DNA of 64,000 bases from positions 1,184,001-1,248,000 of the forward strand of contig OZ253553.1 in assembly GCA_965262715.1 (NCBI GenBank), in the 5' to 3' direction. This document shows, in pieces, positions 1 through 6,340 of the stretch; position 1 is the first letter of the stretch; every line of letters starts with the position of its first letter. The notes under the pieces were generated by a model. The model was not told the origin of the DNA. It saw nothing but the letters and a program-made list of their open reading frames with translations, and made no database searches. A program made the position numbers and the translations under genes. This stretch comes from Bdellovibrionales bacterium (GTDB lineage Bacteria > Bdellovibrionota > Bdellovibrionia > Bdellovibrionales > JAUICD01).

Positions 1-403
1 AGTCTTCAGTGTTTATCATGGTATTAGCATTACTTGGATTGCTTGGAACTGGCGGACCATCATAATCTGATAAATTGGTAGGTAATGTATTGCCTTGTAC
101 CCAATTACCCGGATCTTTTGTAACTAAAGCATTGAAGCCTGTTTTATATTGAACGTCACCACTTGGTGAAAAGCCTAATTGTATAAAGTTTGATGTTGAA
201 TATCCCCATTCAGAATTAAAAGCTATACTTGAAGTGTATATACCACCTAATATTAACTTAGGTTCAATTTGTCTGGCCTTCCTTTGATACCTTTGGTAGT
301 TAGGTATGGCAATACTAGTTAGTATACCTATGATGACAACTACAACCATTATCTCAGTGAGTGAAAATCCTTTTTGATTGAATCTATTTTTTACTTTTTT
401 CAT
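1..403 (-). CDS. Type IVa pilin paralog, 3'-truncated by the window edge (not in ORF track)
   Basis: Manual translation from ATG at 403: MKKVKNRFNQKG|FSLTEIMVVVVIIGILTSIAIPNYQRYQRKARQIEPK, a prepilin G|FxxxE motif; strongly similar to the N-terminus of 1640..2428. Confidence 0.9.
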   Translation of the reverse strand, partial: MKKVKNRFNQKGFSLTEIMVVVVIIGILTSIAIPNYQRYQRKARQIEPKLILGGIYTSSIAFNSEWGYSTSNFIQLGFSPSGDVQYKTGFNALVTKDPGNWVQGNTLPTNLSDYDGPPVPSNPSNANTMINTED

Positions 404-422
404 AAGCATCTACCTGTTTTAA

Positions 423-887
423 TCATAAAGAGGCTATCACTTTGCCACAGAATATATTAAATAATTGGTTGTCTATTGCTTTACATTTAAGCGGTTGATC
501 GTTTTCTAAAGTGACTTTTAAAGAGCAATTATAAACTCTATACTGCTTAAATTTGTATTTACTCGATAGATTGTTACAGACCTTCAAAATTTCTTTACCT
601 CTAAGTAGAGCACATGATTTTTGACATATATTAATAAAGGTTGCATTGTCTCCTATGGTATTTGCTTTTTCTATATAGTCTGTATTTGGTCTATAATTGG
701 CATAGAAGTAATATTGTGCAGCTTCAGTATCTTGCTTAAGATGTGTGGATAAAAACTTCTGATTTGCCTCCTGTGTATCTTTATAAAATTTAAGCCTTGC
801 ATTGTTTACAAGTAATCCTAGTAAACCAATAATAACAATTGCTAGTAAGTAAAGTAATCTTCTAGGACTTGTTTTCTTTAGTTTCAT
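423..887 (-). CDS. Hypothetical membrane-anchored protein, Cys-containing, in pilin locus
   Basis: 154 aa ORF, N-terminal hydrophobic helix, several Cys. Confidence 0.6.
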   Translation of the reverse strand: MKLKKTSPRRLLYLLAIVIIGLLGLLVNNARLKFYKDTQEANQKFLSTHLKQDTEAAQYYFYANYRPNTDYIEKANTIGDNATFINICQKSCALLRGKEILKVCNNLSSKYKFKQYRVYNCSLKVTLENDQPLKCKAIDNQLFNIFCGKVIASL

Positions 888-931
888 TTTTTATTTCCTC
901 AATAAGATCAAGAATAGAATCTCGTAGTTAT

Positions 932-1192
932 CTATTCTTTCCCCTTCTGAGTTATTTCCCATATACTTGCGTTTTTCTCGCTTAACAACTTCTTTACCTT
1001 TTCTTCTTTTTCTAATAGTCGTAATATGCTGTATGTTATCCAATTCTCATGTTCTATGTTATGGGCCCCTGTTTTTTGACTTATCTCCGCTTGTTTAAGA
1101 GGCTTTCCCTCATTCTCTAAAACACGCAATATAGCAATTTTTAGTAACTTTTCAGCAATATCAACAAGGTCCCTACTTAAATTCGACATCAT
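932..1192 (-). CDS. Small winged-helix-like DNA-binding protein
   Basis: 86 aa; AILRVLENEGKPLKQAEISQKTG...YSILRLLEKEEKV wHTH-like pattern; GGAG RBS upstream. Confidence 0.55.
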   Translation of the reverse strand: MMSNLSRDLVDIAEKLLKIAILRVLENEGKPLKQAEISQKTGAHNIEHENWITYSILRLLEKEEKVKKLLSEKNASIWEITQKGKE

Positions 1193-1339
1193 CTCACTCC
1201 TTTATTTTTCAATGTTATAATTCATTGCGTGTCATACCTTTTTACCTGTTTCATGTTTCACTTCTATTTGTTTTAAGAAACCCACGCTGTGTGAAAGGGA
1301 ATAGCCTTTAAAACAATGTGGGTAATTTAACGATTTAAT

Positions 1340-1579
1340 TTATAAACTCACTGGTTTTAATGCTTTATGTCCCTGATATTTATCTTCACAAGCTCTTATT
1401 TTCTTTTCTAGAAAATTCATTCTTTTACTTAAATGCATATCCGTCCTAGCTTGAATGCTTGACAATGCATATAGATGTGAAAAAACTTTCATGCCTAAAA
1501 TACTTCCTATGCCTAAAGAGATAGTGACAGCGATGACAAGCTCTAATAAATAAACTCTTTTAAATTTTAAGCTTGTCAT
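1340..1579 (-). CDS. Small pilin-like protein (degenerate prepilin N-terminus)
   Basis: RVYLLELVIAVTISLGIG resembles a pilin alpha-1 helix with E5 but lacks the canonical G|F. Confidence 0.4.
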   Translation of the reverse strand: MTSLKFKRVYLLELVIAVTISLGIGSILGMKVFSHLYALSSIQARTDMHLSKRMNFLEKKIRACEDKYQGHKALKPVSL

Positions 1580-1604: not shown

Positions 1605-1636
1605 AAAGCCCATGTGGTTTAAGACATGGGTTTTTT
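1605..1636 (-). terminator. Intrinsic terminator downstream of the major pilin gene
   Basis: aaagcccatgt-ggtttaag-acatgggtttt hairpin flanked by A/T tracts right after the stop at 1640. Confidence 0.7.
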
Positions 1637-1639
1637 ATA

Positions 1640-2428
1640 TTAATCAACACCATTTTTAAGATTAATTAAATTTTTTGATTCATCCATGATCCATTGATCA
1701 TCTTGAGTGCCACCAATATTCCCTATTGAACCAATAGTAAAAGTAACCGTGTTTCTAGCAACATTGTTAACACCAGGCCCACTTATACCACATCCTGCAG
1801 CTGCTACTCCAGAAGGGTTTATTTTAGATGGTAGACAAGCCGGAGGAGTAGTACCTAAGGTTAAAGCACATTTTGTGTTAGCATTACCCGGCGCTTTACA
1901 TCCACCCTTAATTGTGTCTGCTTTTAGTACCACACCCTTAACATTCTTAGATGCCCCTAAAGGAACTGTGCAACCTGGAGAATTACTTCCAACAAATGTA
2001 CTAATACTACCAGGATCAGTTACTGTACAAACATGAAAAGTAGTAATATCAGCGGGAATAGATGCCTTTGGACCTGTATAACCAGGAGGTCTAGCCAGAA
2101 GATTTATATCTATACCAGCCGTACCATTGGTCCCAGTCGCACTATCAAATCCTGTTAAATACTGAATTTGACCACCTGGAGTAAATCCAATTTGTAATAA
2201 ATTCGGTGAACCTAAACCATACTCTGCTATAAAAGTTGTCTCTGCTGTGTATATACTAGCTAGCATTGTCTTTGGTTCTGTCTGCCTCGCTCTACGCTGA
2301 AACTTTTGATAATTTGGTATTGCAATCGCAGCTAAGATACCTATGATCGCCACCACAACCATCAACTCAACTAATGAAAACCCTTTTTGGTTTTTCATTT
2401 TATTATATTTTCTTAAAAACTTTTTCAT
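1640..2428 (-). CDS. pilA: Type IVa major pilin (PilA-like) with long Cys-rich variable C-terminus
   Basis: QKG|FSLVELMVVVAIIGILAAIAIPNYQKF canonical type IVa prepilin N-terminus. Confidence 0.9.
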   Translation of the reverse strand: MKKFLRKYNKMKNQKGFSLVELMVVVAIIGILAAIAIPNYQKFQRRARQTEPKTMLASIYTAETTFIAEYGLGSPNLLQIGFTPGGQIQYLTGFDSATGTNGTAGIDINLLARPPGYTGPKASIPADITTFHVCTVTDPGSISTFVGSNSPGCTVPLGASKNVKGVVLKADTIKGGCKAPGNANTKCALTLGTTPPACLPSKINPSGVAAAGCGISGPGVNNVARNTVTFTIGSIGNIGGTQDDQWIMDESKNLINLKNGVD

Positions 2429-2611
2429 GATAAGAACCCCCTATTTCATAAAAAATAAATATTGTCTAAAATAATAAATTTAAATTTCCTCTACCTTTTT
2501 TCTCTTCATCTATCTCTAGCTGCTTAAAAATTTGAAAGAAAATATGACCAAAAATATCAAAAATGTAAGTCTTCAAAGACACATCAAAAGACCAGATTCT
2601 AACTCAACTGG

Positions 2612-2639
2612 ACTGTAACTTACGTACATAAGTTACAGT
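2612..2639. repeat. 28-bp palindromic site A (11-bp arms, 6-bp core)
   Basis: actgtaactta-cgtaca-taagttacagt. Confidence 0.95.
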
Positions 2640-2718
2640 GGTGCACCCTTAAAATCATTGATGTTTTTGGTCATTTTCCCTACCAATGACCATCAATGAA
2701 AAACCCTTTCAATTAACC

Positions 2719-2745
2719 ATATCGGTATTTATTTCAATAACTTAA
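2719..2745 (-). promoter_or_regulatory. Sigma-28 (FliA)-like promoter facing pilA
   Basis: Minus strand TTAAGTTA-N11-ACCGATAT versus consensus TAAAGTTT-N11-GCCGATAA. Confidence 0.55.
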
Positions 2746-2746
2746 T

Positions 2747-2774
2747 ACTGTAACTTATGTACGTAAGTTACAGT
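2747..2774. repeat. 28-bp palindromic site B, exact reverse complement of site A
   Basis: actgtaactta-tgtacg-taagttacagt. Confidence 0.95.
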
Positions 2775-2936
2775 GCTAAGTAGTTGAAATCATTGAAGTA
2801 CTAGACTGTCTAGTCTAGTATTAAGACAACATTTAAGTTGAGAAATTTATAAAGTTGTTGCGAATTGATAAAATGTTTGTATCTAACCAAAACAACTTCT
2901 TATATTTTCATTTTAGCGAAAGAAAAACGCAAGGAA

Positions 2937-3497: not shown

Positions 3498-3923
3498 TTA
3501 AGCGGCTGTGTCAAAGTGCGACTCTATATTTAGAGATCTTAATAATTCTTGTAAAGTATTAAGTGACAAGTTTGTTTTTAAAGAAGCTTCTAATTTAGCA
3601 TAAGTTTGTTGAGTTATGCCAAGTTTTTTTGCAATTTGAGTTTGAGATAGCCTTTTTTGTTTTCTTTTTCTTTTCAAAACAATGGCTAATGATATTTGAA
3701 AATCAACCATTATTGGATAAAAATTCTTGCCCTTTCTCTGCTTAGGATAAGGGATATTAAGATTACGGTCACAACAGGAAGCCAACCATCCGTTGAGGGC
3801 TTCCGATGCATTCTCCTTTGCTTTAGTAAGAGTTTTTCCTTCAGTAAAACACCCTTCAAGTTCAGGAAAGTCAACAAGGTATGATTTATCTTTTTGTTGA
3901 GTGATACGAGTAAAATATTTCAT
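3498..3923 (-). CDS. hicB: HicB family antitoxin with C-terminal HTH
   Basis: YLVDFPELEGCFTEGKTLTKAKENASEAL HicB motif plus XRE-type HTH; overlaps hicA. Confidence 0.9.
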   Translation of the reverse strand: MKYFTRITQQKDKSYLVDFPELEGCFTEGKTLTKAKENASEALNGWLASCCDRNLNIPYPKQRKGKNFYPIMVDFQISLAIVLKRKRKQKRLSQTQIAKKLGITQQTYAKLEASLKTNLSLNTLQELLRSLNIESHFDTAA

Positions 3924-4141
3924 TTCTTTTTAATCCCTATTTTTTTTAAATCTTTCTTTTTAATCTCCGCTTCTTTTAAAATTTTGCTTTCTAATCCCTT
4001 ACCTAAGGATTTATTTCCATGGACAGGTACAGGGATTGTTTTCTTCCCTTTTGCCATAATATGGTGACTTCCTCTAGTTCTTACATGTTTCCAGTCACAT
4101 TTCTTTAACAATGCGACAATAATTCTTCCGGCTAAAGGCAT
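3920..4141 (-). CDS. hicA: HicA family mRNA interferase toxin
   Basis: RTRGSHHIM...VPVHGNKSLGKG HicA signature. Confidence 0.9.
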   Translation of the reverse strand: MPLAGRIIVALLKKCDWKHVRTRGSHHIMAKGKKTIPVPVHGNKSLGKGLESKILKEAEIKKKDLKKIGIKKK

Positions 4142-5386: not shown

Positions 5387-6340
5387 TCAGCAAACCATCT
5401 TTTGTCTATGAAACTCATTAGGAGTTAGAAAACCTAAACTCTTTCGAGGGCGATGGTTTAAAAGAGACTCAACCTTTTTTACATCCTTAGAGGTGACTTC
5501 TCTAAAATCTGTCTTCTTTGGAAAATACTGACGGATTAAACCATTCGTGTTCTCATTTAAACCTCTCTGATATGAACTGTAAGGATGTGCAAAATAAACT
5601 TTACATCCAGTATATTCACTGATCTTCTCATGACACGAAAACTCTTTACCATTATCCAAAGTCATTGTATGAACAACCTCTCCTTTAAGAGCTTTAGAAA
5701 TAGCATGAAAAACTGCCTCAGATCTCTTAGATTCTATTTTGACAATCCTCGTCTTCTTAGAACATCTATCTACCAGCGTGACTAAAGCTCCTTTATGATG
5801 TCTACCTATCATTAGATCACCTTCCCAGTCTCCTATCCGAAGCTTCTTATCTACTATCTTAGGCCTTTTATCAATGCTCACTCTATTCTTTATCTGACCC
5901 CTTTTATCAAATCTACTTGTACCATATCGCTTCTTGCGTTGCCTCTGACATCTTAAAAATTTGTAGAGATCTCCTCCTGATTGCTTATCTCCAAGAATAT
6001 GCTGATAAATACTCTCATGACTTATAGACAAACCTTCTCGTTTAAGAAAACCGGATATCTGTTCCGGACTCAAACGATCACGAAGAAACCTCTCAAGCTT
6101 ATTAATGACTTTTTGTGTTATCTTTATATGTCTATGAGAGTTTTGAAGACGATCGACTGCTTTTTCATGGGCTTGTTGAGGACGATAACCTCGCAAGCCT
6201 TTGTTACGATTCAATTCCCTATATATGGTGCTTTTATCTCGACCTACCTGAGTAGCAATTGAACTTATTGATTTTCCACTTTGCAAAAAAGCTAAAATCT
6301 GGTATCTCTCATGTTGGGTTAGATGAGTGTAATTGCTCAT
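5387..6340 (-). CDS. IS30 family DDE transposase
   Basis: N-terminal HTH; GDWEGD, TLDNGKEF, YFAHPYSSYQRGLNENTNGLIRQYFPK motifs. Confidence 0.97.
   Translation of the reverse strand: MSNYTHLTQHERYQILAFLQSGKSISSIATQVGRDKSTIYRELNRNKGLRGYRPQQAHEKAVDRLQNSHRHIKITQKVINKLERFLRDRLSPEQISGFLKREGLSISHESIYQHILGDKQSGGDLYKFLRCQRQRKKRYGTSRFDKRGQIKNRVSIDKRPKIVDKKLRIGDWEGDLMIGRHHKGALVTLVDRCSKKTRIVKIESKRSEAVFHAISKALKGEVVHTMTLDNGKEFSCHEKISEYTGCKVYFAHPYSSYQRGLNENTNGLIRQYFPKKTDFREVTSKDVKKVESLLNHRPRKSLGFLTPNEFHRQKMVC

Follow-up and report, generated by a model that had tools for sequence, protein, structure and literature searches.

A 163-bp element upstream of a type IV pilin gene is probably an invertible promoter switch that now appears to be ON; a small tyrosine recombinase acting in trans would flip its sigma-28-like promoter. 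The element lies in a window of 64,000 nucleotides, the whole stretch of DNA analyzed here, from a Bdellovibrionales genome (G000) assembled as a single 2.94-Mb contig of 33.6% G+C. Two 28-mers, one proximal to the gene (2612-2639) and one distal (2747-2774), are exact inverted copies with 107 bp between them. Each is a recombination-type site with 11-bp palindromic arms around a 6-bp core, a geometry of 11+6+11, and the cores (CGTACA in the proximal site and TGTACG in the distal site) are reverse complements. Both sites are intergenic. The first-pass annotation of this DNA had described the pair, and its arms, cores, and spacing were recovered exactly from the sequence. The chance expectation for 28-bp pairs no more than 300 bp apart, in a genome of equal composition, is about 2e-7 per genome.

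The putative target is pilA (1640..2428, minus strand), which encodes a 262-aa type IV pilin with a prepilin motif; its best NCBIfam match is the Myxococcus-type PilA, below the cut-off. The inner segment (2640..2746, minus strand) contains a sigma-28-like promoter (2720..2745, minus strand), identified by consensus match only as TTAAG-N15-CCGATA, with TTAAG at 2745-2741 and CCGATA at 2725-2720. The motif points toward pilA, as first proposed, and ends 291 bp before the pilA start. IHF-like boxes lie on the inner (2727..2746) and outer (2775..2794) sides of the distal site, each fitting the IHF consensus at 8/9 positions. Overlap of the inner box with the -35 element suggests an origin of the promoter on the duplicated site unit. 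Genes of the IHF/HU family are present in the genome. A nearly invariant inner motif (2649..2670) includes the sequence aaatcattga, and a flank copy of this motif (2544..2560) is inverted relative to the inner copy in the window orientation and direct in the other modules described below. An RNA hairpin between 2544-2560 and 2658-2674 was considered and rejected, as the pairing is not kept in lipoprotein modules when inspected by eye.

On the far side of pilA, a weak terminator-like hairpin follows the 3' end (1609..1630, minus strand; two such hairpins were found against 1.3 expected). Beyond it is a cassette common to sister loci (2..1579, minus strand), with ORFs of 79, 86, and 154 aa and a second pilin of 209 aa that extends past the window edge. 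To the right of the switch, we note a HicA/HicB toxin-antitoxin pair and an ORF that by visual inspection encodes an IS30-like transposase (3498-4141 and 5387-6340). A short palindromic intergenic repeat, REP- or attC-like, occurs at about 2930-2990; it has 172 matches across the genome, including 24 that lie no more than 2.5 kb from a switch. It is also found in G001, the other genome discussed below, and some of its copies form tandem arrays with a period of about 230-260 bp.

The window element had been taken for a single pilus switch, a view that the source genome corrects, as it carries a family of 18 such modules before surface genes. Allowing up to 4 mismatches, we located 38 sites, of which 36 are paired into 18 modules of 163-164 bp, scattered along the chromosome, and two are solo. 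Every module is 5' of a surface-protein gene: eight precede pilA loci, eight precede large repeat lipoproteins that carry an FQNC motif, and two precede giant pilin-like genes (the latter two classes have no Pfam matches). The genome encodes ten pilA-like proteins, 31-86% identical to one another, and all ten of their genes sit behind a site, eight of them downstream of a paired module and the other two downstream of solo sites whose core is the palindrome TATATA. Among the 18 modules there are 11 distinct inner sequences; the middle diverges, but all 18 retain the sites, the promoter, and the accessory motifs. The IHF-like box outside the distal site, for instance, scores 8-9/9 against the consensus in 18/18 modules, compared with 164 of 5,000 random 20-mers. 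When the modules are aligned by their flanks, the inner segment runs one way in 17 and the opposite way in the window copy only, which is thus the only one of the 18 with its sigma-28-like promoter facing its gene.

Comparison with a sister locus indicates that the segment has inverted, as had been predicted. The module at C1:1,719,672-1,719,834 has the window's 163 bp at 100% identity in the inverted orientation, and its flanks are identical to those of the window over 501 bp on the left and 65 bp on the right. It is part of a pilin cassette that matches the one in the window at 96.5% identity, and the two pilins differ in the variable region. Since identical sequence is inverted between matching flanks, the segment has flipped at least once, and the lack of any substitution in 163 bp between the oppositely oriented loci implies that the flip was recent. 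These observations contradict the alternative offered in the first-pass annotation, in which the sites are two transcription-factor operators in a duplicated regulatory module and no inversion occurs. A 53-nt direct repeat with 79% identity does exist in the window orientation, and solo sites also exist (four in G000, seven in G001, and one upstream of the recombinase gene in many relatives), but operators would need no invariant, inverted spacer, and would not place the same 163 bp in both orientations between the same flanks. The aaatcattga sequence that had suggested such a duplication is indeed present 3' of both sites, but in the window orientation only, as 17 of the 18 modules have the inner copy the other way round. 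Nor are there many solo palindromes that could act as operators, with 36 of 38 sites sitting in pairs. We therefore regard the operator reading as very improbable.

Both orientations also occur in G001, between paralogous loci. This is the sole other genome of the genus that we compared, and its 51 sites form 22 pairs of 344-346 bp and seven solos. The promoter motif points toward the gene in two pairs and away in 19, with an unclear target in one; the two gene-facing modules precede a pilin cluster and an 846-aa lipoprotein. The closest relative of the facing pilin module by inner segment (97.2%) faces away. The sequence of the core differs between G000 and G001, having changed in both partners. 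Across the modules of both genomes, partner cores differ in 0 of 40 and partner arms in 36 of 40. Tyrosine recombinases require identical overlap regions, and inverted cores yield inversion, so invariant cores with diverged arms are the pattern expected of such an enzyme. Among lipoprotein modules (C1:57,158 to C1:2,739,066), the core-adjacent base on the two inner arms reads A/T, A/A, or T/T, and this variation among near-identical paralogs may be a trace left by conversion of one partner site by the other.

Sequencing-run data were available as assembled contigs only, from runs X1, X4, X6, and X8 of 17. In X4, a 32-base contig corresponds to the window's own junction (2610-2641) at a depth of 2.0, compared with 2.0-2.2 for long single-copy pieces. 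We note that this contig extends past the site by only two letters at either end, that a flipped sister module would yield the same word, and that X4 may be a source of the assembly itself. In X8, a joint of 2640 to 2747 on opposite strands, with seven differences, shows an OFF form that belongs to another strain or to a paralog. X1 and X4 had no opposite-strand joint among their assembled contigs; such contigs drop rare forms, and the absence therefore says nothing on switching. An assembly error, in which the segment was placed backwards among near-identical repeats, seems highly unlikely. The 36 near-identical sites could tangle assembly graphs, and no assembled contig from the four runs spans the whole window module, but the X4 contig has the window junction, within the limits just given, and G001 independently has both orientations.

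The ON junction at about single-copy depth in X4 fits a stable state equally well, and could be read to mean that the switches are frozen: inversions would be rare past events, with one copy fixed ON and the others serving as silent archives diversified through duplication and gene conversion. No minority orientation is seen among the assembled contigs for this strain, and partner arms have mismatches in 14 of the 18 G000 modules. Against this, sites, promoter, and accessory motifs are conserved throughout a family with 11 inner sequences and three unrelated gene classes, the recombinase gene is intact, and the sister loci are opposite in orientation with no substitution between them. Frozen switches thus appear quite unlikely.

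The ON assignment depends on the promoter motif, which is retained as T[TC]AAG and CCGATA at N15 spacing in 18/18 inner segments. Genome-wide, this pattern has 27 matches, of which 18 are the switches, and 25 are intergenic in a genome that is about 74% coding. Two of the non-switch matches precede FQNC lipoproteins, at 51 and 96 bp. The N15 spacing equals that of E. coli sigma-28 promoters, and a FliA gene is present in G000 with a score above the cut-off. In a study of B. bacteriovorus, attack-phase promoters are given as TTAAG-N16-CCGATA (PMC3627812); the G001 motif has this published spacing, and the G000 switches are one base shorter. In an expression table, B. bacteriovorus pilA is about 10-fold higher in the attack phase; it is absent from the other two supplementary files. 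Of 15 prepilin ORFs found by a motif scan, the window pilA is alone in having a promoter motif in its upstream 500 bp. The two pilins behind solo sites fall outside that set and have no match in the genome-wide promoter pattern scan. Counting against the assignment, the motif occurs within 500 bp upstream of none of seven unswitched pilA genes of relatives. The window pilA is the predicted expressed pilin in this assembly. A sigma-70 promoter that would instead make the majority orientation ON was sought and rejected, with no match on either strand of 2474-2845. Although flagellin was found in neither G000 nor G001, and hence no flagellin promoter served as a sigma-28 control, FliA is kept in G000.

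No tyrosine recombinase is encoded in the window, as first reported, and action in trans is consistent with where such genes lie. G000 and G001 each have two PF00589 proteins, one XerD-like of about 320 aa and one small protein of about 185 aa, with the G000 genes at C1:1,303,918 and C1:892,939. We consider the 185-aa protein the likely switch enzyme, by its association with sites only. It consists of the catalytic domain only, with a tyrosine-recombinase catalytic fold, and its residues R55, K80, H135, R138, H161, and Y170 are invariant in the best 120 of 995 homologues. FimB and FimE, at about 200 aa, have no core-binding domain; the 185-aa protein scores 35.7 and 43.5 bits against their families, for which cut-offs are 221 and 222. 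A homologue was found in 51 of 61 genomes searched. In G000, a lone site built the same way is found 153 bp beyond the 3' end of its gene, but has another core and therefore cannot partner the switches; in G001, no site occurs within about 5 kb of the small recombinase. In relatives, a single palindromic site (CTTW-N6-WAAG at its center) with an IHF-like box lies upstream of the recombinase gene in 22 of 29 loci and downstream in 0 of 29, a rule fitted on the same loci (the top 29 of 51, from other genomes), whose kin are not independent. In a separate set, nine of ten single sites adjoin a recombinase gene.

The switches could also be real and flipped by another enzyme, either a family-restricted serine resolvase or the single XerD-like protein, which we think unlikely. 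Bacteroides fragilis Mpi is a serine recombinase, and the site here is readable, as for serine invertases such as Hin and Mpi, as 13+2+13 around a central TA on which both switch cores are centered. One module has a gene for a 255-aa PF00239 serine resolvase at a distance of about 2.4 kb, and G001 encodes copies of this protein at 54-59% identity. This resolvase also occurs in G003 and G004, however, where no site was found, in G001 it is multi-copy and partly broken, and it has no site within 1.5 kb. Serine recombinase chemistry does not require all six core bases to be invariant, but all six are invariant between partners. Apart from the small protein, the only tyrosine recombinase of either genome is the XerD-like one of about 320 aa, and a solo site of G001 is located about 3 kb from its gene, but across the order it is the small tyrosine recombinase to which the site is linked. 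The XerD-like protein is the one full-length Xer-like protein in each genome; in G000 (C1:1,303,918), the first histidine of its H-x-x-R reads Q. No PF02371 (IS110/Piv-type) match was found in G000 or G001.

With the small tyrosine recombinase as the preferred enzyme, four subunits would pair the two sites, with IHF-like boxes bending the short loop of about 135 bp. Strand exchange would take place in the 6-bp core, and the inverted cores would make the product an inversion. Sigma-28 would then transcribe whichever gene the segment faces, from a switch biased to OFF. The outcome would be phase as well as antigenic variation of a pilin set with 31-86% mutual identity. A further reading, which we put forward tentatively and consider doubtful, is that only one pilin is expressed at a time, with a bias or counting mechanism leaving a single pilin locus ON. 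The genus would have taken a recombinase-plus-site unit, which in most Bdellovibrionales is single-copy near the replication terminus and may act as an additional dif-like resolver, placed a sigma-28 promoter across the IHF box of the unit, and copied the pair before every major pilin. The promoter faces the gene at one of eight pilin loci in G000 and at one of about 20 in G001. Exclusivity is nevertheless beyond the reach of two genomes, as independent switches averaging one ON, with at least one needed, would give this about one time in three.

In mode of action, the proposed system is like fimS/FimB, mpl, and RecV, and it is outside both the FimB family and XerC/D-dif. DNA inversion also varies a type IV pilin or adhesin in Moraxella Piv and R64 shufflon systems; these inversions exchange coding sequence, whereas here only a promoter flips and both sites are intergenic. 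The resemblance to fimS is in a short invertible promoter segment directly before a major pilus subunit gene, with a tyrosine recombinase (here a candidate); the IHF-like boxes inside and next to the segment, matched to a consensus only, may be a counterpart of the fimS IHF sites. In PMC8777976, E. coli fimS is a 314-bp segment with 9-bp repeats, acted on by FimB/FimE, with IHF sites beside and within it. The present switches differ in having 28-bp palindromic sites over 163 bp, a type IV pilin rather than type 1 fimbriae, a sigma-28-like promoter, and 18-22 loci per genome. Furthermore, the candidate recombinase is not adjacent to the switch and is not of the FimB/FimE family.

The closest system in logic is mpl of Mycoplasma penetrans, described second-hand in PMC8593674 and PMC3599477 as many paralogous surface genes with their own invertible promoters and one tyrosine recombinase. 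Both have many shared-site switches before surface genes; compared by these descriptions, the present case is in another phylum, concerns other genes, and has scattered modules before three unrelated gene classes. According to PMC5914908, RecV of C. difficile acts on disparate target sequences, and its flagellar switch acts after transcription initiation, while the switches described here share near-identical sites and would flip the promoter itself. Like RecV and Mpi, the candidate enzyme would serve several surface switches in trans.

The Xer-type reading in the first-pass annotation holds for the 28-bp 11+6+11 geometry, which the sites have in common with XerC/D-dif, XerS-difSL, and XerH-difH (PMC2731167). 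It does not extend to XerC/D dif sites, as both arms here are alike and unlike a XerD arm, and the sites are paired, inverted, multi-copy, and spread over the chromosome. XerS is about 356 aa, compared with 185 aa for the candidate enzyme, and the single site beside a single recombinase gene in relatives recalls xerS and xerH. We also rejected the switch sites as the chromosome dif; their two arms resemble each other but not the B. bacteriovorus dif. The published dif pattern has no exact match in G000, G001, or G002, with scattered one-mismatch matches only. A literature search, which returned mostly listings and the beginnings of abstracts, included no report of invertible promoters in Bdellovibrionales; a term search did not find Bdellovibrio in the main text of an inverton survey (PMC11602134), and the available part of PMC11318664 names only xerC, xerD, and dif.

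A genome-wide switchboard of this kind would run 18-22 surface genes from one site type. In B. bacteriovorus, the type IV pilus is required for the invasion of prey and is also a likely target of phages and of host recognition. The sites provide a testable substrate for an uncharacterised recombinase that is widespread among the genomes searched. As the recombinase also occurs in the genus that carries the B. bacteriovorus dif, its ancestral function could be studied in an organism that grows in culture. The pairing of a 185-aa recombinase and a directional site of 28 bp would, in addition, offer a compact inversion tool.

Paired arrays appear restricted in distribution. A degenerate exact pattern found more than three sites only in G000 (39) and G001 (51) among 384 genomes, a scan that would miss arrays with other arms or in fragmented assemblies. 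Collection scans gave 23 genome matches, 20 from one Bdellovibrionales bacterium record, and six metagenome matches, all single sites and one beside the recombinase. On metagenome contigs L111 and L116, the same site and IHF-like box occur in loci with no recombinase match. In relatives, the unit combines the site and the recombinase with a helix-turn-helix-like gene in divergent orientation, and the arms vary symmetrically by lineage. G023 and G009 have the switch arms, and the single site of G009 has the core of the G001 switches. The recombinase-plus-site unit is 12 kb away from the published B. bacteriovorus dif (PMC2731167) in G058 (C1:1,875,637) and G046 (C1:2,095,008). A canonical dif is retained in both genomes, and G058 also encodes two proteins of full Xer length; the unit is possibly a second terminus recombination system. 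Candidate ancestral roles are autoregulation, a second resolver, and an integration site.

Solo sites show several arrangements. Two G000 solos with the ancestral TAGTTA core (C1:218,737 and C1:892,721) are inverted and 674 kb apart; one adjoins the recombinase, and the other is 5 kb from the helix-turn-helix-like gene that partners the recombinase in relatives, as if the ancestral unit had split. The two TATATA-core solos flank 6.1 kb of cargo between divergent pilA genes (L016:3326-9475; G000 C1:1,006,325-1,012,474), at a locus with no sigma-28 motif that coincides with the GC-skew maximum. Large inversions between modules were rejected as the cause of GC-skew reversals, as flanks are not swapped between module types. 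In G001, solos in L095, L102, L103, L104, L105, and L106 are half modules, each with one site and a partial inner segment, which are possible products of recombination between modules; several adjoin secreted ankyrin-like genes.
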